Below the pieces are notes generated by a model. That model ran no database searches. It saw nothing but the letters and a program-made list of their open reading frames with translations, and was not told where the DNA came from. From contig JAGLDC010000037.1 of the NCBI GenBank assembly GCA_023145965.1, forward strand, positions 1 through 62,663: a stretch of 62,663 bases of DNA, in the 5' to 3' direction. This stretch comes from a bacterium (lineage in GTDB: Bacteria; UBP14; UBA6098). Position numbers and translations under genes: made by a program. Numbering within the stretch: the stretch's first letter is position 1; every line of letters begins with the position of its first letter. Of the stretch, positions 4,214-60,819 are shown one piece after another.

Positions 4214-5557
4214 TTATGGTTTTTCAGGGAGTATGGTATATGGTGTTACAAAGATAACTAATTCGGTTTCATTTGTTTGGTCTTGTTCAAAACGGAACAA
4301 GCGGCCGATAATAGGAATATCCTTTAAAATCGGAACTCCTCGCATAAGGGCTTTTGTGTCCCTCGTAGTGAGGCCTCCTATAATAAGCGCCCCTCCATCA
4401 TCGACAATAACACTCGTTTTTGCCCATCTTGTAATGATGCTATATCCAGCAGAGCCCGGAGAATATGAGTTGCGTTCGATGTAAAGATCCAAGGACACCC
4501 TTCCCAAGCTTGTAATATGGGGCTTAACTCGAAGCGTAACTCCTATATCGAATAGAGTCGTTACTACATTTCCCGCTTCATCTGTTGTGTTGATCGGGAT
4601 CTTAACACCGGACATTATTTCCGCTTCCTGATTGTCGAGAGTCACGATTTCAGGATTATCAACAATTTCGCCATTGTTGTTTGAAGTCAAGGCAGCGATG
4701 GAAACACCTATGTCATAGTCTCCAGAGACTATTCCCCATGTAAAAGAACCGAGTTGGTCTGTAACACCGATTTCCTGAGCACGGACTCCGAGACTAGCAT
4801 ATTGATCGTTTGGCGGGATGTTTCCGGTTTTACCGCTAGTCGCTATGCCTTGTGAGACGCCAGCTCCAGCTTCCCAAGCAACCCCAAGCTTGTCCAGCAG
4901 CTCCTTATCTACATTGAGGATTTTAGCTGAAACGCGAATTTGTGGTGTTTCTGTATCCAGAACTAAAATAAGGCTCTCGATTCTTGTGAAGACTTCAGGA
5001 ATATCGTTTACGACGATGGAATTCGTTCTACCATCGACAACTAATTCGCCTTCCGGAGTGAGTGTTCCTCGAAGAACCTGAGCCATGGCATTTGCATCGG
5101 CGTAACTGAGCAGGAATATATGTGTGTCATGTGGAATGAGTTGTTGCTTTTGTTGTTGATATTCGCGTTCATCGAGAATGTCCCGTCTATAATCATCGAG
5201 ACGCATTGCACGATATGTGTTGCCCTCTTGGATAAGAGTCAAGCTGAAGGTGTTTATTATACTCTGAAATGCGGTTGCCCATGTGACGTTTCTCAGTTTA
5301 AGGTCCACTGTTCCGGAGATTCTGTTATCGACGATAATATTAATATCCCCGGTTTCAGAGAAAAAATTTACAACGGATTTAATATCTGCCGACTGAAATA
5401 CTATTTGAGGAAATAACCTGTCTCCATGAGGAGATATTTCGTTAGCATTAGCAACACCTTCTTCGAGCTTTCTTAAAAAGTTGTATCCGACATCCTGGGC
5501 AAAAATGTTTAATGCTGCGGCTAAAAAGACGATGATGAGAATAGAGCTCTTTTTCAT
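4214..5557 (-). CDS. pilQ: Type IV pilus secretin PilQ (short form, no AMIN domain)
   Basis: Signal peptide, STN/N0-like module, and a secretin C-domain with GGLTTRD...RGVPILKDIPIIGRLFR...TELVIFVTP. Last gene of the pilMNOPQ block. Confidence 0.85.
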   Translation of the reverse strand: MKKSSILIIVFLAAALNIFAQDVGYNFLRKLEEGVANANEISPHGDRLFPQIVFQSADIKSVVNFFSETGDINIIVDNRISGTVDLKLRNVTWATAFQSIINTFSLTLIQEGNTYRAMRLDDYRRDILDEREYQQQKQQLIPHDTHIFLLSYADANAMAQVLRGTLTPEGELVVDGRTNSIVVNDIPEVFTRIESLILVLDTETPQIRVSAKILNVDKELLDKLGVAWEAGAGVSQGIATSGKTGNIPPNDQYASLGVRAQEIGVTDQLGSFTWGIVSGDYDIGVSIAALTSNNNGEIVDNPEIVTLDNQEAEIMSGVKIPINTTDEAGNVVTTLFDIGVTLRVKPHITSLGRVSLDLYIERNSYSPGSAGYSIITRWAKTSVIVDDGGALIIGGLTTRDTKALMRGVPILKDIPIIGRLFRFEQDQTNETELVIFVTPYTILPEKP

Positions 5558-6519
5558 CGGTCTTTCACCTCCTTTGGCAAAGAAAGAGTTACTTGCCTGA
5601 TTACTCCAAATTCTTCAATATTAAAGGTTACAGTAGTATCCGAGATTTCGGAGATGATGCCACCTTTAATGCTATCGCCGGTTCCATAAATGTAACCCCA
5701 CCCTCGAGCATCTTGCAAAACTGCAATTTTATTGATTCCTCGTCCAGCGACTACTCCCACAAGCATAAGGTCCTCTACAATTGGGAATGCCTCTTCGCCG
5801 AGTTTTGATTCGGTTGCGGGTTTTGCTACTACAAATGGGTCAGGAAAATCCCAACCTCTATATACCACGAGAGGGCGAATATAGCTTGCGCCCTCTCCTA
5901 GAGAATCCCCAGATATAAAGGCTTTTTGAACCTGTTCCTCGTGCACTCTTCTAGTAGGTCTCGGTTTTTTTATAGAGGATGGGGGTTCCGAGGTTTTTTG
6001 AGTTTCGCTTTTTTCTTTTATAGGCTTGGCTTCGGTTTTTACTTCTTTGGGTGCTTCTTCTGTCTCCGATATTGGCTTTACCTTAATTTTATCGGCCGGA
6101 GTGGCTCTACTAATTGACCACTCAGTGAAATCAGGATAGCCGGGTGTAGGCACAATAACTTTGCCTGATCTGGGGCCATCAGACGAGCTAATTTCCCCTG
6201 TGGGTTCGGCCAACACAAATACAATTCGCGTAATAGGTGGATCGCTTTGAAATTGAGCTGAACGGGCTTCGACAACTATCCCCGGTGGAAGCGGAGGAAT
6301 GTTTTTGTCCTTAAGGCGATGGATACCGCCAATTAGGTCGATAAGAAGCCGGTCTGGATTCTGGAGACGCGCGGTCTTAATCGATGAAGGCCCCGAAGTC
6401 AAAACTTCCGTGATCGTGTTATCGCCTTCTCGATATATCTTCAAACCCACGACATCATACTCAGAAGCCGAAATGCTTATAATAGTAACAAGGATTATTA
6501 TTAATATTTTTTTCATCAT
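5554..6519 (-). CDS. PilP-like pilus assembly protein with N-terminal AMIN-like domain
   Basis: Sits between pilO and pilQ with 4-nt overlaps. Signal peptide, AMIN-like segment (NPDRLLIDLIGG...ITRIVFVLAEP), K/E/P/T-rich linker, and a C-terminal PilP-like beta domain (IAVLQDARGWGYIYGTGDSIKGGIISEISDTTVTFN). Confidence 0.55.
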   Translation of the reverse strand: MMKKILIIILVTIISISASEYDVVGLKIYREGDNTITEVLTSGPSSIKTARLQNPDRLLIDLIGGIHRLKDKNIPPLPPGIVVEARSAQFQSDPPITRIVFVLAEPTGEISSSDGPRSGKVIVPTPGYPDFTEWSISRATPADKIKVKPISETEEAPKEVKTEAKPIKEKSETQKTSEPPSSIKKPRPTRRVHEEQVQKAFISGDSLGEGASYIRPLVVYRGWDFPDPFVVAKPATESKLGEEAFPIVEDLMLVGVVAGRGINKIAVLQDARGWGYIYGTGDSIKGGIISEISDTTVTFNIEEFGVIRQVTLSLPKEVKDR

Positions 6520-7214
6520 TCTAGCGTTGGGATAATGCCCCCGGAAACTCCGCTGAGCGCATCGTCCTCAGTTGCGCGGGGTTTAGTGCCCGGAGTAGGT
6601 TTTGAAATAGCGCCTTGACTCGATTGATTAACTTCGGTTAACATAGAAGGCGGTTGAAGCCTTTCCTCGGTTTTAATATGATATGCATTTATTACAAACT
6701 CAGAGTTAACTGTCTCACTTCCCTTCGAGCTATTTTTTACCAAAAAGTTTTTAGTTGTAGCAACAAATTTAAGATTTGCGATTGATTCGAGGAAAGAACC
6801 AAGTTCATGATATTTACCAGAAATTACAATTCTATAAGGATTGGTATGATAGTATTCAGATGCCTCGGAGGGGATAACATCGAGTTGCCTGACCATCATG
6901 TTATTCTCTCTTGCCGAAATATTGAATTTTGTTACAAAATCTGCAACATCCCTTTCTGTTGGCATTAATTCCTCGAGAAGTTTATATCGAATAAAAAGCC
7001 TTTCAACCTCTTTTTTAAGTTGAGGTAGTTTAGCCGCGGAGAGTTTGATATTTGAAAGCTTAAGATTAAGCTGTTCTAAAGTTTCTCTTTTTTCCTGTAT
7101 GATTTCTTTATTAGGAGTATATATCTGAGTGAGCCACAAAGCAAAAATAACACCGAAAATAAGAATCCCAGCGGCGATCTTTTGAACTTTATGGTCTTTA
7201 AAACTTATATTCAA
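6516..7214 (-). CDS. pilO: Type IV pilus assembly protein PilO
   Basis: Single N-terminal TM helix, coiled coil, then a ferredoxin-like C-terminal part. Operon position between pilN and the pilP-like gene. Confidence 0.7.
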   Translation of the reverse strand: MNISFKDHKVQKIAAGILIFGVIFALWLTQIYTPNKEIIQEKRETLEQLNLKLSNIKLSAAKLPQLKKEVERLFIRYKLLEELMPTERDVADFVTKFNISARENNMMVRQLDVIPSEASEYYHTNPYRIVISGKYHELGSFLESIANLKFVATTKNFLVKNSSKGSETVNSEFVINAYHIKTEERLQPPSMLTEVNQSSQGAISKPTPGTKPRATEDDALSGVSGGIIPTLE

Positions 7215-7936
7215 GGCTCAGGTTTCTCCTGTTTGGCTTTTTTAACAGCATCCAGTGCAGCATTTTTCTCTTGTTCAAGAGCTTCTCGGCCCAAAGGCAC
7301 AACTTTTGATGAAATAGGAGGAAGTTCATCCTTTATATTTATCTCTTCTTCGCCAATAAATTCTCCAGCATATTTCTCGGCAGTGGCAAATACTACATTT
7401 CCGGAAAGCTCGAAGCTATATTGCGTAACGCCTTCCGAAGTCGTGTTTTGTTCCCGAATATAATTCAACTTAATATCATCGAAATATTCCGAATTGATAA
7501 GACCGGCAATAAAATTGGCAATACCTTTAAGATTATAGCTTATACCTTTGACTGTAACGATCTTCTCAACTTCGACAAATTCGCTTATCCATAGAAATTC
7601 TGGTATTAAACTGGCAAACTCTTCGAATGTCTTAACCCAAAATGGTCTTTGGATTTCAAGCATTTTAATTGCTTCGATTCTCGTCGCTATTTTATCGCGT
7701 AACTCCTGAACTTGTTCGACCATGCTAACCTGTTGGCTAAAGCGTTGAATCTCGCTCTCCACTCTTGCAATTTCATTCTGAAGGGTTTCAATTTCATTTT
7801 GTTGTTGTTGAGTTTGGAACCAAAGAACAACAAGCCCTACAACCAAACAGACGAAAACATAAAGGAAATATTTATCGAAAAAAGGAACTTTCCTTTTTTT
7901 CCTAAGCTCCTGTGGTAGTAGGTTTACTTTAATCAT
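7211..7936 (-). CDS. pilN: Type IV pilus assembly protein PilN
   Basis: Canonical N-terminus MIKVNLLPQELRKKRK (the PilM-binding INLLP motif), a TM helix and a coiled coil. Confidence 0.8.
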   Translation of the reverse strand: MIKVNLLPQELRKKRKVPFFDKYFLYVFVCLVVGLVVLWFQTQQQQNEIETLQNEIARVESEIQRFSQQVSMVEQVQELRDKIATRIEAIKMLEIQRPFWVKTFEEFASLIPEFLWISEFVEVEKIVTVKGISYNLKGIANFIAGLINSEYFDDIKLNYIREQNTTSEGVTQYSFELSGNVVFATAEKYAGEFIGEEEINIKDELPPISSKVVPLGREALEQEKNAALDAVKKAKQEKPEP

Positions 7937-7937
7937 A

Positions 7938-9005
7938 CTAATCCGCCCTCAATACCAAACCAACAGCATTGGTATATATGGCTCCGATTTTTGATGGGTC
8001 CACTCCTCCAAATACTCCTTCCGCCGGCTGAAGATTCTTGAAAGGATTCATTATTTCAACAGAAACACCGGTCTTTTGCTCGATAGCTTCCGGCAAATAA
8101 TCGATCAGGGCTCCACCACCACTTAGATATATTTTATCGACTTTCCTACCTTGTGTAACATTTTCGATGTAGCTAAAAGCGACATCTAAACCGAGTTTAA
8201 TATCCTCAGCAGCATTGAAAACAGCCTCTTGAAAAGCGGTTTTATCTTCTATTGGGAATTTATCTAGCATTAAATCGTCGAGATCATCCCCTGTGAGCCT
8301 GAGCTCGGATTGAATATAATCCCATATCTGTCTAGCTCCAGTCGAGACATCTCTGACAGTATAATAGGTTCCATCAATTACAAAAGTTATATTGCAAAGC
8401 GCATGGCCAATATTAGTTAACGCGAAAACGCCCTCTTCAGGAAGACCATAATTAAACTCGAAAGCATTGAAAGTAGCAAAAAAATCGAGATCAATGGCAA
8501 TGGGTTCCAGGCCAGCGTCGCGAACAGCGTAAAAATATTGTTCCACAAGTTCTCGCCTAGCAGCAACAAGAATAACATCCTCTTTTTTGCCATCAGGGGT
8601 TTTGCCAAGATGGTGATAATCCACGGCTACACCGGATGTTCCGGTTGGGATTCTCTGTTCAGCCTCGATCATGACCGCCTCGGAAAGCCTGCCTTTTTTA
8701 CTTCCAAGCGAGACTTGAATTCTGTCGGTGAATACCTTGTGGCCTGAAAGGTTGAGGATAACCTCGTTTGTTTCCGGAGCAATTTCTTCCGCTAGGCTTT
8801 GGATAGCATAAATTACACCTTCATGGTCCTTTATGTCTTTTTCTACGATTGCGCTTTGAGGAAGGGTTTTCAAACCAAAGCCGAGGAGCTTGGGTTTGCC
8901 TACAGATGGAGGAACGATATTTACAATTTTTACATTAAAGGTGCCAATATCGAGTCCTAAAATAGAACCAGATCTTCGCCCTCTTATGGAGTCGAGAATG
9001 CTCAT
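7938..9005 (-). CDS. pilM: Type IV pilus assembly ATPase-fold protein PilM
   Basis: Actin/FtsA-like fold motifs (LGLDIGTFNVKIV, IYLSGGGA). First gene of the pilMNOPQ block. Confidence 0.85.
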   Translation of the reverse strand: MSILDSIRGRRSGSILGLDIGTFNVKIVNIVPPSVGKPKLLGFGLKTLPQSAIVEKDIKDHEGVIYAIQSLAEEIAPETNEVILNLSGHKVFTDRIQVSLGSKKGRLSEAVMIEAEQRIPTGTSGVAVDYHHLGKTPDGKKEDVILVAARRELVEQYFYAVRDAGLEPIAIDLDFFATFNAFEFNYGLPEEGVFALTNIGHALCNITFVIDGTYYTVRDVSTGARQIWDYIQSELRLTGDDLDDLMLDKFPIEDKTAFQEAVFNAAEDIKLGLDVAFSYIENVTQGRKVDKIYLSGGGALIDYLPEAIEQKTGVSVEIMNPFKNLQPAEGVFGGVDPSKIGAIYTNAVGLVLRAD

Positions 9006-42251: not shown

Positions 42252-43265
42252 ATGACATTAAGGGGAGATTTTTTCTTATTCTCCGTTTTCCTGCTCTTAA
42301 TCTTCGCTGCGTTGACAGCGAGTTCTACGCCTCCGGTTCCGGTTATGTTTGCACCGGCCGAAAGCGTTATTACTACATGCGAGGACGAAGAGGTTCACAT
42401 CGACCTCACGAGCGGTAGCGATATCGACATTTCGACAATTGTCTTTTGGGTGAATAGCGATAGTTTTACCCTGGACGACGACGAGCTTCAACTCGTTAGC
42501 GACACGCTTTATTTCAGACCTAGCGGTTTCTATACTTATCAAACCGGTAATATAACCGTTTGCCTCGATAGCATTAGCGATACTATCGGTGTTTGGTCGG
42601 ATGAGTATTGTTGGGATTTCTTTGTCGATCTCGAACCTCCGATTATGAGCAATGCTTCACCGATGAGTCCCCCCTCGATATCGGCCTTCAATTTCGACAT
42701 CGAGATGGATATTGCCGACTTATTGCTTCCGGTAGATTCGACAACAATAGTTGTGCAAATTATTGCCGGCGACGAGACGACTATGGTCGATTACGACGAA
42801 AGCTATGTCGAATGGAATAATCCGACCCTTAGCTTTGATGCTCAAAGAACCGGCGCGATCTTCGAGGATGGCCAACAGGTAACTGTCCGCCTTATTGTGC
42901 GCGACCTTCCGCCTGTCACATCCGACTGTGCTGGCAATCTTCTCGACACATCGTTCACATTTACTCTTGCGGAAACGCCGTGTGATCGGTCACCAAATCC
43001 TATAACGCCTGGATTGCAAGACAATGTTAATGATGAGGTAATCTTTCAGTTTCCGAATATGCGCAAGGCCAATTCGGAGATACATGTCTTCATTTACGAT
43101 CTTAAAAATAATCAAGTTGCAGACATCGATCAGCCAATCTCAGGCGAATGGCGCTGGGATGGTTTGGACACCGCTGGTGAACAACTCGGTCAAGGGACTT
43201 ATATTTACTTGATCAAAGTGGACGATGAAACGCAATGTTCTGGAACCATTAATATCGCCCGATAG
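42252..43265 (+). CDS. Secreted Ig-like-domain protein with FlgD-Ig / T9SS type-B (CHU_C)-like C-terminal domain
   Basis: Signal peptide. The C-terminal ~90 aa are PNPITPGLQDNVNDEVIFQF...IHVFIYDLKNNQV...WRWDGLDTAGEQLGQGTYIYLIKV...GTINIAR. Compare the FTPNGDGINDxF...IFNRWG...WDG...GTYYY pattern. Confidence 0.6.
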   Translation: MTLRGDFFLFSVFLLLIFAALTASSTPPVPVMFAPAESVITTCEDEEVHIDLTSGSDIDISTIVFWVNSDSFTLDDDELQLVSDTLYFRPSGFYTYQTGNITVCLDSISDTIGVWSDEYCWDFFVDLEPPIMSNASPMSPPSISAFNFDIEMDIADLLLPVDSTTIVVQIIAGDETTMVDYDESYVEWNNPTLSFDAQRTGAIFEDGQQVTVRLIVRDLPPVTSDCAGNLLDTSFTFTLAETPCDRSPNPITPGLQDNVNDEVIFQFPNMRKANSEIHVFIYDLKNNQVADIDQPISGEWRWDGLDTAGEQLGQGTYIYLIKVDDETQCSGTINIAR

Positions 43266-43273
43266 GAGGGAAA

Positions 43274-46165
43274 ATGAGAATTAATAGGTATCTTATTGTA
43301 GCGATAGTTTTAGCAATGATGGTTTCTCCGCTCATTGCGCAAGTCGATCAGCTTGGCGCACGTCCATTGGGCGCGGGCGGTGCATATACAGCTATGTCGG
43401 CCGATGCTAACTCTTCAGTCTGGAACCCGGCCTCGATGGAGTCTTTCCGCAATCTTGCTTTTACTGCGAGTTTTGCGAGGCTCTATTTAGGTGTCGAAAA
43501 TGATGGTCTGAACGAGGGCTTTGCTAGCTTGGTCAATCATCTCGGTTTATATGGTCAGTATGGTAGTTACGGCATTTCATTTGCCCAATACTTCTCTGAT
43601 GTCTATAGCCAGATGCAGGTGACTTTGGGTTACGGCAAAAGGCTTTATGGCACTGTTGACGGAAATCAATTTTCTGTCGGAGCCAATTTAAAGCTGCTTC
43701 GCAGCGGTTTTAATGATGCTAATTTTTATAATTTCGATCCAACCGATGAGGTGTTCAGTTCGAGCTACAACAGCATGTCATATTCGGCAGATGCCGGTTT
43801 GTTTTTCCGTCCGGCTAATTGGATAAGTGTTGGCGCGGTCGTTCAAGACCTTCTTCAGCCGGATGTTTCGATTTCCGGTTCAGGAGAGGATGCCGACAAG
43901 CTTCCTATGAAGGTTCGTGGTGGGCTGGCCTTTCATTATAAAGGCTTCCATCCGACCGTCGATATCGAGTATGCGATGCGAGAAATAAATGGCGAATCGG
44001 ACATGAAAATCCATGCTGGTATCGAGAAATGGTTCGGTAAGACCTTCGCCGTTCGCGCCGGCCTTAATCGAGATGAAGCGGCTCTCGGGCTTTCCTATAT
44101 GCATTTTGGCGAGCGCCTTGGATGGGGAATCGATTATGCAGTTCTCTATCCCGCACTTAACGAGATGGCCTCGGATTTCTTAACCACACATCGAGTTGCG
44201 GTTAATCTAACACTGGACCCTCCACCAGAACCGATACGCGACCTCGAGTTGTCCGGTGAAGTTGTGGAGATTACGCCCAAGAGAGGCCTTATTGGCGGCG
44301 AGGTTGAGATTCGCACTATTATAGAAAACCGTGGCGAGATCGATGAAAATGGAGTTCGGGTAGCTGTTTATTACCAGAATCAACTGGACGAATGGAACCT
44401 CGCTGTCCCGGTCGAAAAATACGACTTCGGCGTGGCCGAAAGGGTTGCTCTTTCCTGGAAATGGACGCCTCCCGCCAAAGGACATTACACGATCTTCGTT
44501 AATATCGATGATAAGGGTGATAGGATCCCGGATATTCGCGGAAGGGTTCCTGAAGATGATGAAAGCAACAACACAGGCATGGGCGAATTCGATGTGTTCC
44601 TCACTCCTGAGGGCAACATCAAACCGCGCGATGAGCAGCTCAAGGTTAGTAAGCTTACGCTTTATCAAGAGGAAGAGCCACTTATTCCTGTGGTTTTCTA
44701 TGGGAAGGAATCTGCGGATGTTGCTCAGCGCTATGATGGCATGCTTGCGACCGTGGCCGAACGACTCAAGACGAATCCCGATGTTTTAATTTATCTTCGC
44801 GGTTATTATGATGAGCTTTCCGAGCCTGGAGATAATAAAGAAAGCTTGGCAATTTCGAGAGCTCGTGGGGTTGAAACAAAGCTTAAGGCTATGGGTGCAC
44901 CTGCGGCTCAGGTTAAAGTGATCGATAGCGGTTATTTCATGGGAAAATCTCGTGCCGGCAATCTTAGCAGCCAATGGATTGCACAGGATAAGAAACTCAT
45001 GTCTGCGGAAAACCGCAGAGTGGAGCTTTCTGCATGGTTCCCGCAGGGCGTCGATTTCTTGGCCGAAGTTTCCTTAAACGGAAGCAGCCTCGGCACCGAT
45101 GGCATCACTGCGCTCGGTGGGCAGATGACTGCGATTCAAAATATCCTGAACCGCAATCCAGAGGCCATTATTCTTGTCGAGAGCTTCTATAATTCAGAGG
45201 ATGAAGCCTCTGCCGACCAAGGCTTTAAAAAAGCTATGGAGATTGGCAGGTATATCCGCGGGCAACTCGGAGAAGACCTCGGAGAACGCATTAAGATACA
45301 TACTTCCTTTGAACCTGAAGCCGAAGTTGAAAAAATCCTCGTTTTCCCGAATTCAGAGGGTGTAATCTGGCGTCCGAAGGTCGGGGACAGAGTGTTCACC
45401 GATTATCAGGTAGAAGGCACAGAGGAAAACCTTGTTGAGATAGATGCCGCAGTGGATGCTGGCGTGGATAGCTTCGGTGTGGTTATCGTTAACGAAAAAG
45501 GCGATGTAATCCGCACGCTTGCCTATGGCAAGGGGGAAATTCCATCTGGTCTTGCATGGGATTGGCGCGATAACTCCGGCGAGCTTCTGGATTTCGACAA
45601 TAAATATTTTGCAAAGCTCGACATTCGCGATAATATGGGAGAGACTTTCCTCACATATTCCGACACAATGGAGATTCAAGTGACACACCAGGCTAAACGC
45701 ATCGAGAGCCTTGTTATTGTTCTCTTCCGTTTCGATGAGGATGTCCCCGAATCCAAGTTCCTCGAAACCCGTGTTGAATATGTTGCACGTCGATTTATCG
45801 AGAGAGCGGATAAAAAGAACACCAGCGTTATGGCGCTAGTTACTGGCCATGCAGACTCTATTGGCCCTGAGTATGATAATATTGCACTTTCCAAGAAGCG
45901 GTCTGAGAGAGAGTTGAACACTCTGAAGAATTACATGATGTATCAACTCGATTTCGATACCAAAGACCAACTCGATAAATGGCTTTCGGACAGGCATGTT
46001 ACGCTCGAGGCTAAAGGCTTTGGCGAATCAAAGCCCTATGAGATACTTCGCTGGACAGGTGAGACGGTCGAACGTGTTCTTCTTGGGGATAATGCTTATC
46101 CCGAGGGTAGAACAGTTAACCGCAGGGTTCTTTTGGAAGTGGAAAGCAGAAGAATCACCGAATAG
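43274..46165 (+). CDS. PorV/PorQ-like outer-membrane barrel fused to CARDB, FlgD-Ig-like and multiple OmpA_C-like peptidoglycan-binding domains
   Basis: AGGAGG SD 8 nt after the upstream stop, then a signal peptide. N-terminal GARPLGAGGAYTAMSADANSSVWNPASM barrel motif (~290 aa). CARDB-like segment (GGEVEIRTIIENRGE...NNTG). OmpA-like units ending ENRRVELSAW and GRTVNRRVLLEV. Confidence 0.7.
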   Translation: MRINRYLIVAIVLAMMVSPLIAQVDQLGARPLGAGGAYTAMSADANSSVWNPASMESFRNLAFTASFARLYLGVENDGLNEGFASLVNHLGLYGQYGSYGISFAQYFSDVYSQMQVTLGYGKRLYGTVDGNQFSVGANLKLLRSGFNDANFYNFDPTDEVFSSSYNSMSYSADAGLFFRPANWISVGAVVQDLLQPDVSISGSGEDADKLPMKVRGGLAFHYKGFHPTVDIEYAMREINGESDMKIHAGIEKWFGKTFAVRAGLNRDEAALGLSYMHFGERLGWGIDYAVLYPALNEMASDFLTTHRVAVNLTLDPPPEPIRDLELSGEVVEITPKRGLIGGEVEIRTIIENRGEIDENGVRVAVYYQNQLDEWNLAVPVEKYDFGVAERVALSWKWTPPAKGHYTIFVNIDDKGDRIPDIRGRVPEDDESNNTGMGEFDVFLTPEGNIKPRDEQLKVSKLTLYQEEEPLIPVVFYGKESADVAQRYDGMLATVAERLKTNPDVLIYLRGYYDELSEPGDNKESLAISRARGVETKLKAMGAPAAQVKVIDSGYFMGKSRAGNLSSQWIAQDKKLMSAENRRVELSAWFPQGVDFLAEVSLNGSSLGTDGITALGGQMTAIQNILNRNPEAIILVESFYNSEDEASADQGFKKAMEIGRYIRGQLGEDLGERIKIHTSFEPEAEVEKILVFPNSEGVIWRPKVGDRVFTDYQVEGTEENLVEIDAAVDAGVDSFGVVIVNEKGDVIRTLAYGKGEIPSGLAWDWRDNSGELLDFDNKYFAKLDIRDNMGETFLTYSDTMEIQVTHQAKRIESLVIVLFRFDEDVPESKFLETRVEYVARRFIERADKKNTSVMALVTGHADSIGPEYDNIALSKKRSERELNTLKNYMMYQLDFDTKDQLDKWLSDRHVTLEAKGFGESKPYEILRWTGETVERVLLGDNAYPEGRTVNRRVLLEVESRRITE

Positions 46166-55164: not shown

Positions 55165-57633
55165 ATGTTCGTTTCAGGAAAAAAGGGATTTTTATCTCTT
55201 ATAATATTTTTATTGTTGCTTTCCGCATTTACAGTTTCAGCCGATAGAACGCGCGGAGGAGTTCTTTTCCTTTTGATAGGCCCCGGCGCTAGAGCCACGG
55301 GGATGGGAGAGGCCTTTGTCGCCATCGCAGACGATCCGACAGCAACATATTGGAATCCCGCCGGTCTTGGTAACTATCCGCTTTCTTCGCAATGGATCGA
55401 CTATGGAATTCCTCCCGGGAATAAAATAATCGCTATTGCTACCGAGAAAACAGGTGTTATCGATATAGATTATCGAACCTACGATGTCTGGGCTGGAACC
55501 GATTCAGGGCTTTTTGTCCATAAAGGCAAAAAATGGGTTGGAGAAGAAAGATACACTACAGCCGAAGAGGAATCGATGATAGATGTGCTGTTCCACTTCA
55601 TTGATGGAACTTCTTTTGATTCGAGTGTGGTATATGATAGGATTATTCCTGCGGTGTTGGCTGCAAACAATATGTCCGAACTTCCAGAGGGCTATCTTCC
55701 CCCTGAAACAAAACTTGTTATTCCTTTCGATGCCCTTGTCGATGGTAAAATAACCGCTCTTTTGGGCGGCAAGAAGGAGCTTTGGGTTGGCACCGATAAT
55801 GGCCTTTATCGAAGGATCAGAGGCCAATGGGAAAAGTTAAACCAAAGTGGTGGTCCCGGAAGTAAGAATGTAACTAAAATCGCGATAGACAGCCGCAGCT
55901 ATCTTTATGTTGGCACTGATGATGGCCTTTATACCCTTACAGGAAGCCGCTGGACTCGTTACACCTCAGGCGATGGCCTTCCGGGTAATAGAGTTCATTC
56001 GATTTTTGCTGGTTCGCACCGCGATATCTGGGTTGGAACTGAAGCTGGCCCAGCGCGTCAAAGCGGAGATAAATGGGAAAACTCCTTCAAGGTCGAGCCT
56101 GCGCTGGATGTAGATTGGCAGGGATTGGTTAAGCAAGTGTTTCCCATCAGCGGGACTAGAAGCATAGAACACGCTGCCTCCGAAATTATTGCTCGCAACG
56201 AACAACTCGACAAACAAAGACCGACCCCCGGTTCTAAGATTGAAATTCCTTATTCAATAGCCTTCGAGTCGCCTGTAACAGCTATTTTCGTTGATAAATA
56301 TAGGAAAATCTGGTTTGGAACAGAACTCGGCCTTAAATGTTGGGATACCCAGAGTCAAAAATGGAGCTTTTATGGATGGACTTCCGAGGAGATAACCGAC
56401 GAGATTTCTATTGAGGATTGGGCGCGAGCCAGATGGTCTAAGGCCTCCGACGATTTGATTAAAGACCTGGTGAAGTCGCTTCGCTATCATAATCGTATTA
56501 ACGGGCAGGTTTTTGAAGCAGGTAACACTATTGAATATCCGAAGAGCCCGATAAGCGGGCATATTACTTCGCTCGAGGGAGCCCCAGATGGCAATCTTCT
56601 GGTAGGAACCGAATTTGGGACTATGGTTTACGATTATAAAAAGGGTCGCTTCGGCTATTACGATCAAGGTGGCCTCAAAAATGAAAAGCTCACGGATATT
56701 ATCCGTCATGGTAATGAGTATTGGTATAACACCGGCGATAACACCTCGATCTATTCAAAAGGCAAACACGGCATTAGTTTCATGCATGTTCAATGGCTTC
56801 CGACGCTTGCACCCGATCTTTATTATGAGTTCCTTGGCGGAACGACATATCTCGAGGGCTGGGGAACGGTGGGTGGAGCGATTACATATATTAACGAAGG
56901 TAAAAACGAGTGGACGGATGAGGATGGAACTGTTCTCGGCACCTTCAGTTCTTACGAACTCGCGGCCTCAGGTGTTTATGGCACTAAGGTTGCTCCGAAT
57001 CTTTCTGCCGGCTTGGCCTTCAAGCTTATCTATTCAGCTTTAGCTAAGGGCGTAACAGTTGGCATGGAACAGGAAGAGGGTGTCGCGACGACATTCGCGG
57101 TCGATGCCGGTCTCCTTTATCAAACGCCGGTCAAAGGCCTATCTCTTGGTATGGCGGTTCAAAATCTCGGGCCGGATATTCACTATATCGATGCTGCACA
57201 AGCTGACCCACTTCCGCGCAACCTCAAGGCTGGCCTCGCATGGAAGATACTTAATACAGACTATAATAGGCTTACACTTGCCGCCGACATCAATAAAGAC
57301 CTCATTAATTGGGGCAATGATCCAGTCGGTAAGGAATTCCACGAAGCGGTAAAAAATCTCGGTGTCGAATATACTTACTCTAACTTTATATCACTACGCG
57401 GCGGTTACATGATAGACTACGATTATATCCCGACCGAATCCTCTGATATTATTCGCAACGAAGATTTTAATTCCGATCATTGGAAGGGGATACACTATTT
57501 TACACTCGGCGCGGGGCTTAATTTTAAGAATTTCGGCTTTGATTTCGGCTATATTCCGTTGCAAGAGGACGACGAAGAGGGCAAACTCGTGCTATCGAAT
57601 ATTCTTCGCTACTCGGTTAATATTGCCTTTTAA
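55165..57633 (+). CDS. PorV/PorQ-family-like OM beta-barrel with ~460-aa inserted beta-propeller-type repeat region
   Basis: GGAGG SD and signal peptide. GARATGMGEAFVAIADDPTATYWNPAGLG barrel-opening motif. Six to seven WxGTxxGL repeats (VWAGTDSGLF, LWVGTDNGLY, LYVGTDDGLY, IWVGTEAGPA, IWFGTELGLK, LLVGTEFGTM). The C-terminal ~290 aa are amphipathic beta strands ending in NIAF. Confidence 0.7.
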   Translation: MFVSGKKGFLSLIIFLLLLSAFTVSADRTRGGVLFLLIGPGARATGMGEAFVAIADDPTATYWNPAGLGNYPLSSQWIDYGIPPGNKIIAIATEKTGVIDIDYRTYDVWAGTDSGLFVHKGKKWVGEERYTTAEEESMIDVLFHFIDGTSFDSSVVYDRIIPAVLAANNMSELPEGYLPPETKLVIPFDALVDGKITALLGGKKELWVGTDNGLYRRIRGQWEKLNQSGGPGSKNVTKIAIDSRSYLYVGTDDGLYTLTGSRWTRYTSGDGLPGNRVHSIFAGSHRDIWVGTEAGPARQSGDKWENSFKVEPALDVDWQGLVKQVFPISGTRSIEHAASEIIARNEQLDKQRPTPGSKIEIPYSIAFESPVTAIFVDKYRKIWFGTELGLKCWDTQSQKWSFYGWTSEEITDEISIEDWARARWSKASDDLIKDLVKSLRYHNRINGQVFEAGNTIEYPKSPISGHITSLEGAPDGNLLVGTEFGTMVYDYKKGRFGYYDQGGLKNEKLTDIIRHGNEYWYNTGDNTSIYSKGKHGISFMHVQWLPTLAPDLYYEFLGGTTYLEGWGTVGGAITYINEGKNEWTDEDGTVLGTFSSYELAASGVYGTKVAPNLSAGLAFKLIYSALAKGVTVGMEQEEGVATTFAVDAGLLYQTPVKGLSLGMAVQNLGPDIHYIDAAQADPLPRNLKAGLAWKILNTDYNRLTLAADINKDLINWGNDPVGKEFHEAVKNLGVEYTYSNFISLRGGYMIDYDYIPTESSDIIRNEDFNSDHWKGIHYFTLGAGLNFKNFGFDFGYIPLQEDDEEGKLVLSNILRYSVNIAF

Positions 57634-57639
57634 TTTAAT

Positions 57640-60600
57640 ATGACGAATACTATAAAAAAATATGCCTTGATCTCGTTTTTGGTGATTTTCCCACAGATTC
57701 TTTTGGGAGGCGCAAAAATGGAGATTCACCCACTCGGTCCAAACCCCTATTTTCGCGGCGACCCCTGGATTTCGCAGGTCTCAGATCGCAATCTTCTTGG
57801 TCTCGATCGAGCTTCGCCGTGGGCTCTTCCGCGCCCTTCGAAAAATGCTGTTCCCGATACTATCAAGGTTCTTGTTATTCGCGTGGAGTTCCAACCTGAT
57901 AATACAAGCCGCACCACCGGAGATGGCACCTTCGATTTAAGCCCTTACGAGCAGTCCCCGCACCCTTTCGACCCTCTGCCGCATAATAAAGCTTATTTCG
58001 AGGCACACATGAAAGCGCTTAGAAATTATTATTTAGCAGTCAGTGACTCACAAGTTTATATCGATTTCGAGGTTTTTCCGGAGAGTGAAAATATTGCTTA
58101 TCGTCTTCCGGATTCCATGAGTTACTACGGCCCTGAGGGTTGGATGGGTTTCGATATGGCCGACAGAATGCAGCAATTCTTTAGGGATTCATGGGAGCTC
58201 GCCATCGCCGAGGGAGATTTCGATATCTTTGATTATGATGCTTATTTTGTTTTCCACGCTGGGAGCGATTGGCAGAACGATATTGCATCGAGTAATCCCG
58301 ACTATGTGGCCTATTGGCCCGATATTTTCATTCCCAGTCCAGATGACCTTCCCACCGGTTATTTGAAGCTTCCTTTCAAGATAGCCGACCGTATCGAGGA
58401 TGGGATAATTATGCCAGAGCATGGCTGGCAGGATGGTCAGATAACCTGCATAAATGGGGCTGTTGCCCACGAATTTGGGCATCAGCTAGGTTTGGTTGAC
58501 CTATACAATACCGGTAATTTTATTACGCAAGTCGGCGATTTTTCGCTGATGGACAACGGCTTTGCGGTCGGCGCGGACATAGGTTTCGATGTCGATGAGG
58601 ACGGCAATGTTTCCGATGACGAATTCTATTCAGTCTATGGGATGTTTCCGGGCTATCCCGACGCTTGGAGTAGGGCTTATCTCGGATTCGAGACTCCGGT
58701 CGAAGTTGTAGATGATTGCGATACCATTGTTTTAGAAGCCTGTGAGTTGCCCATGAACGAAGGGGTAACTCTAATTAAAATCCCGATTAACAGCTACGAA
58801 TATTATCTTATTGAAAACAGGCAGGACGACCTTGCCGGCGACGATGGTTTCTATAGCCTTAAACGAGATAGTCTAACCGGTGTCGTTATTGGAGCTCTCG
58901 CAGTTGACACCACGAAATTTACCTCGGCCTTGGATTTTCTTCTTCCGGGTCGCGGGTTTTTAATATGGCACATCGATGAGACTGTGGCCTATTCCGATGT
59001 CGATGGCAACGGGATCAATAATTTTAATGATAACACACTTCAATGGGACTTATCGCGGCGTTTTGTGGCCCTCGAAGAAGCTGATGGCTATGAAGACCTC
59101 GGGACTATAATTACCTTTGGCGAGCCACTCGATTATTTTTATTATGGCACTAACTTCGGCCCAAACACGAATCCCTCGACCTCGGCCAACGATGGCGGTT
59201 TTTCTGGGATACTCGTGGACAGCATGTCTGTTTCGGGTGATGAGATGCACCTTCGTATTCGCTTCGATAATGTTGTCCCGACACCCGATGTTATCACGAC
59301 GATATATCCTCTTTATGCCCCAATGCAGGCTGGCGATCTCGACGGTGATGGCTTCGATGAACTTCTTACAGAAGCCTATTATTTTAACGGCTCGGCTTAT
59401 GTTGGTTGTGTTCTTATCTGGAATTTGGATGGCACTCCCTTTATCGATAACGGTATAACCGTTTCTGGGTCAGAATTCGACGGAAATGTTATCCGCGCGG
59501 ACTATCCGGTTGCCGCGACCGTTAACGCTGAACGAGTTACACTTCCGGCTGTTGGTAATATCGACAGCGACGAGCTGGCCGAGGTGGTCGGCATCGATAC
59601 CGAGGGCTGGCTTCATGCGTGGAACCCTAGGGACCTCGTAGGGGGCTTCATGCGGGAGCTTTCAGGTTTCCCCGTTGAACTCGATAGTTCAGCGCAGCGG
59701 AGCGTCAGCCTATGGGACGTCGATTCTGACGGCGAATTAGAGATCGTAGCTTATGCTAATGAAAGATGGTATCTTGTCGATAATGACGGTTCGATTCTCG
59801 CCACCGGCGATGCTCGCGGTGAAATAATGGGAATTGCACCAACGGAACAAGGGCTTTTTGTTGCCGCTAAAAGGACGCTTGCTAAGATTATATTTTTTAG
59901 CTGGACAGGCGAGGTTATTCGAGAGAAACAGCTTTCCTCGGGCGATGTATCTTACCTTGCACGCGGCGATCTCGATGGCGATGGTATTTCAATGGAAATT
60001 GCATGCGCGGGGCGTTCCGGCGTTCTATTTGCTTTTGATTCCACCCTTGATTATCTCGGAGTTTTCCCGACAAACATAAACGATACATCACTTTCGAGTC
60101 CGGTTATAGTTGATATTGACGGCGACGATGTTCTGGAAGTTTTATCGACAGGAAGAAAAGGGCTTTATATTTATGAACCAACGGGAATTCCGCATGAAAA
60201 CGCGCCCTTCGGGCTCGAAAATGTCTTAGCATCTCCAATATTCGGGGGAGAATATGCGCTATTTCCCTCCGGTGATGGTCCAATTAAAGCTATAAATAGT
60301 TTTGGCGAATCACCTTATGGGTTTCCTTTGGGCGGGGCGCCATCGAATGCCGCACCCTGTTTTTTCAAGGGCTCGGAGGGTTATGGTCTTGCGCTCGGAA
60401 GCACAAACGGCTCGCTTTTAATATGGAATAACCTAGAAAATTCGCTTGATGATGGCGCGTGGCCGATGTGGGGTGCAGATGCAAGGCATACATTTTTACA
60501 GGCAAGCGAAGGATCGTGTCCGCTTGTAAGCGGTGAAGACGGCATAGAAATTTTCTATTGCTATCCCAATCCCGCAGAAAGATCTACCATTTTTCGTTAT

Positions 60601-60819
60601 TCTTTTTCCGGTTCTTCCCCGGAGAATGTCCAGATCAGAGTTTTCGATGCTGCGAATAACCTCATCGCAAGCCTAGATGGTCAGACTAACGCAGGGACGC
60701 CTCTCGAGCTTGAATGGAATACTGAGAAAGTCGGAAGTGGTGTGTATTGGGCAAGGTTATCTGGAGATTTTAAAGGAAAGACTATTTCAAATATTTTCAG
60801 AGTGGCGATTGTCAAATAA
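57640..60819 (+). CDS. M6 (immune inhibitor A-like) zinc metalloprotease with FG-GAP/VCBS repeats and T9SS type-A C-terminal sorting domain
   Basis: Starts 6 nt after the barrel gene. HEFGHQLGLVDLY (58468-58482 encodes HEFGH) matches the M6 HExxHxxGxxD motif. FG-GAP-like repeats GDLDGDGFDELL, GNIDSDELAEVV, WDVDSDGELEIV, GDLDGDGISMEI, VDIDGDDVLEVL. Tail YPNPAERSTIFRY...VFDAANNLI...GVYWARL...VAIVK. Confidence 0.8.
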   Translation: MTNTIKKYALISFLVIFPQILLGGAKMEIHPLGPNPYFRGDPWISQVSDRNLLGLDRASPWALPRPSKNAVPDTIKVLVIRVEFQPDNTSRTTGDGTFDLSPYEQSPHPFDPLPHNKAYFEAHMKALRNYYLAVSDSQVYIDFEVFPESENIAYRLPDSMSYYGPEGWMGFDMADRMQQFFRDSWELAIAEGDFDIFDYDAYFVFHAGSDWQNDIASSNPDYVAYWPDIFIPSPDDLPTGYLKLPFKIADRIEDGIIMPEHGWQDGQITCINGAVAHEFGHQLGLVDLYNTGNFITQVGDFSLMDNGFAVGADIGFDVDEDGNVSDDEFYSVYGMFPGYPDAWSRAYLGFETPVEVVDDCDTIVLEACELPMNEGVTLIKIPINSYEYYLIENRQDDLAGDDGFYSLKRDSLTGVVIGALAVDTTKFTSALDFLLPGRGFLIWHIDETVAYSDVDGNGINNFNDNTLQWDLSRRFVALEEADGYEDLGTIITFGEPLDYFYYGTNFGPNTNPSTSANDGGFSGILVDSMSVSGDEMHLRIRFDNVVPTPDVITTIYPLYAPMQAGDLDGDGFDELLTEAYYFNGSAYVGCVLIWNLDGTPFIDNGITVSGSEFDGNVIRADYPVAATVNAERVTLPAVGNIDSDELAEVVGIDTEGWLHAWNPRDLVGGFMRELSGFPVELDSSAQRSVSLWDVDSDGELEIVAYANERWYLVDNDGSILATGDARGEIMGIAPTEQGLFVAAKRTLAKIIFFSWTGEVIREKQLSSGDVSYLARGDLDGDGISMEIACAGRSGVLFAFDSTLDYLGVFPTNINDTSLSSPVIVDIDGDDVLEVLSTGRKGLYIYEPTGIPHENAPFGLENVLASPIFGGEYALFPSGDGPIKAINSFGESPYGFPLGGAPSNAAPCFFKGSEGYGLALGSTNGSLLIWNNLENSLDDGAWPMWGADARHTFLQASEGSCPLVSGEDGIEIFYCYPNPAERSTIFRYSFSGSSPENVQIRVFDAANNLIASLDGQTNAGTPLELEWNTEKVGSGVYWARLSGDFKGKTISNIFRVAIVK

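Follow-up and report, generated by a model that had tools for sequence, protein, structure and literature searches.

A PorV-family barrel interrupted by a predicted periplasmic propeller with LysM-like modules in a UBP14 bacterium

Introduction

PorV of type IX secretion systems (T9SS) is a single-domain protein of about 400 residues (402 in the PDB sequence). The DNA analysed here, a stretch of 62,663 nucleotides from a bacterium of the GTDB lineage UBP14; UBA6098 (assembly GCA_023145965.1, contig JAGLDC010000037.1, forward strand), referred to as the window, contains an open reading frame (ORF) at 55165-57633 (+) that is read without interruption into a PorV-like protein of 822 residues, with some 460 residues added between the two elements that are contiguous in the canonical protein, the hatch and the first strand of the barrel. 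The locus raises the question of what this additional domain is, on which side of the outer membrane it lies, and what it could contribute to a secretion and attachment system. A previous reading of the DNA, made from the letters and their translations (the sequence-only reading), had assigned positions 55378-56760, which are exactly residues 72-532, to a propeller-type insertion, and the analysis reported here followed up that proposal.

The architecture and topology that emerge, namely a PorV-family barrel with a periplasmic beta-propeller that carries LysM-type modules, are held with high confidence. As for the function, it is reasonably likely that the protein is the PorV-type carrier or anchor barrel of the type IX secretion/attachment module of this lineage, and that the periplasmic propeller-LysM platform would fix the barrel in place.

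The PorV-family barrel

The 822-residue protein belongs to the PorV/PorQ family: it matches the family hidden Markov model above its cut-off, and it has a 14-stranded barrel that bears a hatch. The NCBIfam model PorV_fam (NF033709) scored 230.2 bits against a cut-off of 90, with residues 530-822 corresponding to model positions 39-326 and a separate stretch matched at the N-terminus; Pfam PF19572 scored 61.5 bits against a cut-off of 27, and this match was split around the insert in the same way. In the alignment with Flavobacterium johnsoniae PorV (PDB chain 6h3i_F), residues 4-64 of the latter pair with query residues 10-67, and residues 68-258 with query residues 531-714; hence 460 residues stand in place of about 3 of a normal PorV. 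The claim that a PorV-family barrel is interrupted by a Reg_prop propeller of about 460 residues was borne out, as the PorV_fam match is split by residues 72-532 and the insert itself scores as Reg_prop.

Regarding the N-terminal part, the length of the hatch never departs from 42 residues among the 53 aligned relatives, which also share 14 invariant residues in it; the sequence shows the NPAGL motif of the hatch at residues 64-68 and, at the end of the protein, a terminal Phe. Direct reading of the 822 residues found no lipobox cysteine, and in the AlphaFold2 model the region of the signal peptide has a helix at residues 6-20, with a low predicted local distance difference test (pLDDT) value at residues 20-29.

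The inserted propeller

The Pfam Reg_prop model (PF07494) matched the whole protein with an E value of 8e-16 and the excised insert with 1.9e-17 (56.5-61.6 bits, cut-off 20.4), and four stretches of the excised insert passed independently. The motif W/L-x-G-T-x-x-G occurs six times, at residues 109, 207, 248, 289, 383 and 479, with spacings of 98, 41, 41, 94 and 96 residues; all six copies listed by the sequence-only reading were found, and the PF07494 scores put the repeats clearly beyond chance.

The AlphaFold2 model, for which the input was an alignment of 53 sequences of relatives, had a mean pLDDT of 87.4 and a predicted template modelling score (pTM) of 0.82. It comprises a short helical/coil hatch at residues 30-70, an insert of 28 strands arranged as seven propeller blades of four strands each (pLDDT mostly >90), three beta-alpha-alpha-beta modules at about residues 127-187, 307-362 and 405-459, and 14 barrel strands from residue 536 to residue 821. 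Judging from the order of the strands in the model, the strand at residues 76-81 most plausibly supplies the outer strand to the final blade, blade 7 (residues 511-531), in a "velcro" closure; the two ends of the propeller would therefore be adjacent, which is the geometry expected of a domain inserted in a host protein.

Foldseek comparison with the PDB returned PorV as the best match, with 8gl6_F (E 2.7e-15, 339 aligned columns of 367) and 6h3i_F at target-normalised TM-scores of 0.61-0.63, followed by the Reg_prop propellers of the Bacteroides hybrid two-component sensors 3va6, 3v9f, 3ott and 4a2l (E values of 1e-12 to 1e-10 for 3va6, 3v9f and 4a2l); PorZ (5m11, E 1.6e-7), FadL and TodX ranked lower. 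These matches indicate that both flanks of the ORF together make up a single PorV-like unit, with a Reg_prop propeller in the middle, and the structure prediction with its match to 8gl6_F agrees with the earlier suggestion that residues 1-70 and 533-822 belong to a single barrel protein.

Position and topology of the insert

By alignment and in the predicted structure, the insert is located between the N-terminal hatch and barrel strand 1. The earlier placement, in the barrel's first turn or loop, has to be corrected, as the insert comes after the hatch and before strand 1. In the AlphaFold2 model, the connections between strands S2-3, S4-5, S6-7, S8-9, S10-11 and S12-13 are short (3-5 residues), and those between S1-2, S3-4, S5-6, S7-8, S9-10, S11-12 and S13-14 are longer (5-17 residues); this alternation, together with the ...NIAF end, gives the standard pattern of short periplasmic turns, long external loops and a periplasmic C-terminus.

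Two published contacts of F. johnsoniae PorV provide reference points: residues 193-199 form a periplasmic loop that contacts SkpA, and Asn87 contacts the C-terminal domain of the cargo inside the pore (PMC10994853). The former aligns to the S6-S7 turn of the query (about residues 656-660) and the latter to the S1-S2 loop (about residue 550). Counting back from there, strand 1 begins at the periplasmic rim, and since only four residues separate the end of the propeller from strand 1, the propeller is predicted to be periplasmic. The whole 460-residue domain would thus hang below the barrel in the periplasm, a topological conclusion that is well anchored. The sequence-only reading had left the choice between a surface-exposed and a periplasmic platform; the periplasmic half of this proposal stands, and the surface-exposed half is unlikely from the strand and loop pattern and from the periplasmic loop of F. 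johnsoniae PorV.

The LysM-like modules

The modules spliced between the blades are recognised as LysM-like through the relatives of the protein. Among the 53 aligned relatives, 23 were matched by Pfam LysM (PF01476), the lowest E value being 2e-14, and the match coordinates in ten of them, projected through the alignment, fall on query residues 310-362 or 408-458: the former, in module 2, receives the matches from P0058, P0059, P0064, P0066 and P0037 (E down to 1e-13), and the latter, in module 3, those from P0045, P0047, P0072, P0090 and P0039. By profile-profile comparison with hhalign all three modules are mutually homologous (97-99%, E 1e-11 to 1e-16), with probabilities of 98.1% and 97.4% for module 1 against modules 2 and 3, and of 98.7% (E 1.5e-16) for module 3 against module 2. 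Asn345 in module 2 and Asn443 in module 3 are near-invariant. It is on this homology to relatives with Pfam LysM matches, combined with the predicted fold, that a LysM identity of the modules of the 822-residue protein rests; by sequence comparison and modelling they are LysM-derived and very diverged. The two endings that had tentatively been taken for LysM, PGSKIEIPY and EAGNTIEYP, proved to lie at the ends of predicted beta-alpha-alpha-beta modules that align to the LysM matches of the relatives, and a third LysM-like module, at residues 125-190, was added to them.

Among the relatives the propeller scaffold is constant and carries differing numbers of modules. All of them have modules 2 and 3 at a steady length of about 58 residues; the position of module 1 holds about 5-16 residues when the module is absent (forms of 727-738 residues), or about 65, or about 135 residues, with one module in the clade of the 822-residue protein and about 135 residues in typical Zixibacteria. 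In one relative a further LysM-like copy is present. The lengths in the family fall into corresponding classes: the forms of 727-738 residues (P0037, P0041, P0046, P0087, P0098) are without module 1, and those of about 860 residues have the stretch of about 135 residues at that position. In addition, forms of about 1045-1057 residues (P0056, P0057, P0067, P0073, P0078 and others) match just about 77% of the query, from which it follows that they must hold a further domain of about 230 residues.

Conservation in the lineage

A homologue search over 5.8 billion proteins gave 1613 homologues, the best 120 of which were described in detail. They are 727-1057 residues long, and the Pfam PorV match occurs in 120/120, Reg_prop in most and LysM in many; hence the proposed check for PorV homologues longer than 700 residues had a positive outcome in all of these 120. 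The few named ones among them are called "PorV/PorQ family protein" and come from Zixibacteria, Acidobacteriota and unclassified bacteria.

Scanning species-representative genomes yielded 374 relatives, and the 80 of these that were kept (L001-L080) are the basis of the locus counts given below. The query was matched essentially whole in 77 of the 80 loci, the exceptions (L017, L076 and L080) lying at the edge of their loci or close to it. Most of the 80 genomes are labelled Zixibacteria/Zixiibacteriota, and the rest UBP14, GN15, FCB group, Ignavibacteria, unclassified "bacterium" and, in one case, Acidobacteriota; the closest is a UBP14 UBA6098 genome, with 81% identity.

When the insert by itself was used for an exhaustive phmmer search, full-length matches came solely from inside PorV fusions; the other matches covered three canonical blades only, in long multi-Reg_prop proteins, and a stand-alone propeller-LysM composite was not seen in this search.

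The gene cluster

The features of the protein and of its neighbours are collected in Table 1.

Table 1. Positions in the window of the domains of the PorV-like protein and of the genes around it
Feature	Position	Strand	Remarks and basis
PorU-type T9SS sortase (C25 peptidase), 1284 aa	51231..55085	+	T9SS_sortase 588.6 bits, cut-off 420; Peptidase_C25 E 5e-67
Sec signal peptide	55165..55242	+	residues 1-26, read from the sequence; cleavage site inferred between ...FTVSA and D
N-terminal hatch segment of the FadL/PorV fold	55243..55377	+	residues 27-71, GARATGMGEAF...DDPTATYWNPAGL; alignment to 6h3i_F residues 4-64
Inserted domain, predicted closed seven-bladed Reg_prop-type beta-propeller, periplasmic	55378..56760	+	residues 72-532; Pfam, AlphaFold2, Foldseek
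LysM-like module 1	55537..55734	+	residues 125-190, between blades 1 and 2; AlphaFold2 beta-alpha-alpha-beta and hhalign
LysM-like module 2	56077..56256	+	residues 305-364, between blades 4 and 5; LysM matches in relatives and AlphaFold2
LysM-like module 3	56371..56547	+	residues 403-461, between blades 5 and 6; LysM matches in relatives and hhalign
14-stranded PorV-type outer-membrane barrel	56761..57633, including stop codon	+	residues 533-822, end ...NIAF; PorV_fam, AlphaFold2, Foldseek
M6-like metalloprotease	57640..60819	+	intact HEFGH motif, FG-GAP repeats, weak match to T9SS type A C-terminal sorting domain
Two paralogous secreted proteins, function unassigned, 291 aa and 242 aa	60964..62587	+	tblastn recurrence downstream in relatives

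The PorV-like ORF is preceded by the PorU gene, which ends 79 nucleotides upstream of it, and 71 of the 80 loci likewise have a PorU match directly upstream, most of the other nine having too little upstream contig. On the other side, the gene of the M6-like metalloprotease starts 6 nucleotides past the PorV-like stop codon, which makes its product a probable operon partner and cargo; an M6-like match is found downstream in 72 of the 80 loci. This protein scored 309 bits with the NCBIfam model T9SSA_dep_M6i, below the cut-off of 600, and its Por_Secre_tail matches had E values of 5e-4 to 7e-4 and 20.0-20.3 bits, under the curated cut-offs of 23-27. The T9SSA_dep_M6i family is named "T9SS-dependent M6-like inactivated metalloprotease"; unlike this name, the protein of the window keeps its HEFGH motif. 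Moreover, the existence of NCBIfam models for PorU2 and PorV2 suggests that a parallel PorU2-PorV2-M6i trio that resembles this cluster is known elsewhere.

As for the two paralogues that follow, the protein of 291 residues was found downstream in 55 of the 80 loci and that of 242 residues in 52 (tblastn), which amounts to most of the loci with long enough contigs. The motif L-x-x-PGAG-x-x-Y-x-G is common to the two, each has a signal peptide and NF at its C-terminus, their matches to DUF5683 are only weak, and their recurrence after the PorU-PorV-M6 trio suggests that they may be further, unrecognised parts of the attachment module. The order is then PorU, PorV with insert, M6-like protease, 291-residue protein and 242-residue protein, each neighbour being present in 52-72 of the 80 loci, and the missing neighbours are mostly in loci whose contigs stop before the expected position. 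Ring or motor genes and Sov/SprA were not found in the 62-kb window, the rest of which is ordinary chromosome, with uvrA, rho, argS, lepA and a PilQ-type secretin.

Some features further upstream in the window also recall type IX secretion. One of them is a beta-helix protein that has a type A tail, and at 42252-46165 (+) a pair of genes encodes a protein of 337 residues, with a weak match to the type B sorting domain (CHU_C 25.4 bits, cut-off 27; TIGR04131 19.4), and one of 963 residues, which starts 9 nucleotides after it. The latter has a weak PorV-family barrel match at residues 28-280 (52 bits, cut-off 90), a CARDB domain, an OmpA domain (residues 476-550) and a weaker OmpA-type peptidoglycan-associated match at about residues 772-885, so that the two proteins resemble a barrel of the PorP/SprF type and its type B cargo, the barrel being fused to PorE-like peptidoglycan-binding domains. 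Finally, the PilQ-type secretin at 4214-5557 (-) scored 258 bits, slightly below the subfamily cut-off of 284; it ends a same-strand run with the ORFs at 5554-9005 (-), which may be a type IV pilus assembly operon and is unrelated to the PorV-like protein.

Likeness to known proteins

PorV (LptO) of F. johnsoniae and Porphyromonas gingivalis is the best match of the 822-residue protein in both sequence and structure (6h3i_F, 8gl6_F). The two share the 14-stranded barrel of the FadL family, the hatch with its NPA motif, the C-terminal aromatic residue and the position of the gene right after porU; apart from the inserted domain they differ in host, which is Bacteroidota for the known PorV and Zixibacteria/UBP14-like for the protein of the window. 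On the grounds of synteny and of its best equivalog match, the protein is probably the PorV orthologue of its lineage.

A propeller and a peptidoglycan-binding module are also combined in PorE, which forms with PorP, a T9SS barrel of the FadL family, a proposed bridge from outer membrane to cell wall (PMC9143113, PMC7192894); the PorE propeller is described as WD40-type (PMC12773672). PorE of P. gingivalis (PG1058) is a lipoprotein of its own, composed of TPR, WD40-type propeller, CRD and OmpA_C-like domains, whereas in the protein of the window the module is covalently inserted in the barrel, the propeller is of Reg_prop type, and the putative wall-binding parts are LysM-derived. TPR, OmpA and PorE models of Pfam and NCBIfam gave no match in the 822 residues at E values up to 1. 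Judged by its sequence, the protein is not PorE, given this result, the missing lipobox and the different type of propeller. For the same reasons, the suggestion that the PorE modules are distributed here onto two barrels had to be given up as a statement on homology, and at most a functional analogy is retained.

The best solved matches of the insert, the Bacteroides sensors BT4663, BT4673 and BT3049 (PDB 4a2l, 3va6 and 3v9f), share with it the Reg_prop family, the seven blades and the periplasmic location. These sensors bind glycans, and have two tandem propellers and a Y_Y_Y domain on an inner-membrane kinase; in the protein of the window there is instead a single propeller, with LysM-like modules spliced between its blades, on an outer-membrane barrel.

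PorZ (5m11) resembles the insert in being a propeller-containing part of the T9SS attachment complex that is held by a barrel of the PorV/PorQ family, and the matches to it are weak in sequence and structure (PorZ model NF052228, E 0.001, 17.6 bits against a cut-off of 260). PorZ itself is secreted to the cell surface, has two propellers as well as a C-terminal sorting domain, and attaches to PorQ without a covalent bond, whereas the insert is predicted to be periplasmic and is without sorting domain. Identity with PorZ, or a surface fusion of PorQ and PorZ, was considered and rejected in view of the periplasmic topology, the single propeller, the missing sorting domain and the low scores.

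Proposed function and its alternatives

In the function that is favoured, the extracellular loops of the barrel would hold PorU and cargo with a type A C-terminal domain, for instance the adjacent M6-like protease, as in the usual role of PorV. The periplasmic platform would fix the barrel, through binding of the LysM-type modules to peptidoglycan, through contact of the propeller face with periplasmic parts of the T9SS, or both; PorV itself would then take over the bridging between outer membrane and cell wall that in Porphyromonas is done by a separate PorE bound to the PorP barrel. With a covalently attached anchor, PorV would be held in place and not diffuse freely. What the analysis shows is the architecture, the logic of the topology, the conservation and the synteny, including a strict co-occurrence with PorU; the binding of peptidoglycan or of a partner, and a shuttle that is tethered rather than freely diffusing, are deduced. 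Anchoring to peptidoglycan specifically is a tentative proposal, which falls a little short of an even chance. The broader idea that the Zixibacteria-type PorV is a stationary, wall-tethered hub, whose platform replaces PorE-like and perhaps ring-associated anchoring parts, and that the five-gene cluster is a compact, self-contained attachment unit unlike the Bacteroidota model, is possible and rather doubtful at present.

Several observations weigh against this interpretation. Regarding orthology, the PorV equivalog model NF033710 scored 148.2 bits, under its cut-off of 250 yet above the scores with the PorQ model (79) and the PorV2 model (46.7); the score is spread across three stretches because of the insert, and since it stays below the cut-off, orthology to PorV over other PorV/PorQ members rests largely on the adjacency to porU. 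Regarding the modules, the three LysM-like segments excised from the 822-residue protein gave no match with Pfam LysM at E values up to 10; profiles of modules 2 and 3 built from their own clade only found no significant LysM chain among the PDB sequences, the best hit being CEBiP with an E value of 0.16; and the canonical GD(T/S)L..IA motif is replaced in the modules of this clade, so that glycan binding may have been lost there. Retention of glycan binding by the clade is uncertain. Lastly, the periplasmic placement derives from strand parity and counting and from alignment to published PorV loops, and not from measured geometry.

An alternative that shares the architecture assigns the propeller to docking or coupling with the T9SS motor, ring or translocon rather than to wall anchoring, with the LysM-derived modules as structural decorations: contacts would be made with PorK/N-like rings, a PorW/SprE-like bridge or a Skp-like chaperone, and this machinery would position or move PorV/PorU. 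It is regarded as unlikely. Propellers are typically protein-docking platforms, the LysM signature is degenerate in the clade of the 822-residue protein, propeller and barrel seem to pack in a defined way to judge by the pTM of 0.82, and the known complexes offer precedents, as the PorU-PorV and PorQ-PorZ complexes of P. gingivalis are directly above the PorKN rings and co-purify (PMC12365241), and the periplasmic face of F. johnsoniae PorV touches SkpA (PMC10994853). However, the window has no ring or motor genes, and the modules of many relatives are still clearly LysM (E down to 1e-13); these scores, and a module number that varies like that of a valency cassette, fit ligand binding better than a purely structural part.

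A quite improbable alternative is that the insert is a glycan module of the PorZ or sensor type, as in a PorQ-PorZ-type fusion, which would bind an anchor made of glycolipid or polysaccharide, or sense a glycan in the periplasm, and offer it to PorU. LysM modules bind glycans that contain N-acetylglucosamine, and the closest solved propellers are the periplasmic glycan sensors of the Bacteroides hybrid two-component systems; PorZ too is built from propellers, and its structural match and weak NCBIfam match go in the same direction. Yet PorZ acts on the cell surface with a C-terminal sorting domain, which the insert, with its periplasmic topology, does not have, the score with the PorZ model is far under the cut-off of 260 bits, and the equivalog scores put the barrel closer to PorV (148 bits) than to PorQ (79 bits). 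Lipopolysaccharide, moreover, is transported to the outer leaflet without free passage across the periplasm.

As for a chimeric assembly or a fused gene call that joined a propeller protein to a PorV gene, the chance is negligible: the length of 822 residues against the usual 400 or so is the sole hint of it, the concern raised over the assembly by the sequence-only reading being dispelled by two independent assemblies of the same sample, an ENA scaffold of 397 kb and a Logan contig of 32.6 kb, which both encode the identical protein with the same neighbours, by the length and near-equal Pfam content of the 120 best homologues, by the occurrence of the gene in the same cluster in 80 species-level genomes from many studies, and by the PorV match on either side of the insert, the uninterrupted frame and the even GC content over the region of the ORF.

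Significance

Literature searches on PorV with a propeller, PorV with LysM, and PorV2/PorU2 turned up no account of a PorV in which a propeller or LysM part is inserted, and searches on type IX secretion or T9SS in Zixibacteria gave none either; the opinion that a propeller grafted in a cargo-shuttle barrel is an undescribed architecture was therefore upheld, as far as these searches extend. The protein is a lineage-wide variant of PorV rather than a new kind of system, and in it a FadL-family barrel provides a clear case of a whole propeller placed between hatch and strand 1. Because the organisms are uncultured, its function is inferred, and this limits the value of the finding.

PorV is central in models of the T9SS, either as a mobile shuttle from the translocon to the attachment complex or as a barrel that is dragged by a rotating periplasmic ring. 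To our knowledge, such work on PorV all comes from Bacteroidota, where the protein has almost no periplasmic mass. In conclusion, a whole lineage outside Bacteroidota whose PorV always bears a large periplasmic propeller with LysM-type modules constitutes a natural experiment, one that addresses how the barrel is positioned or energised, whether the hand-over of cargo can go together with anchoring to the wall, and how PorE-like functions can be reassigned.

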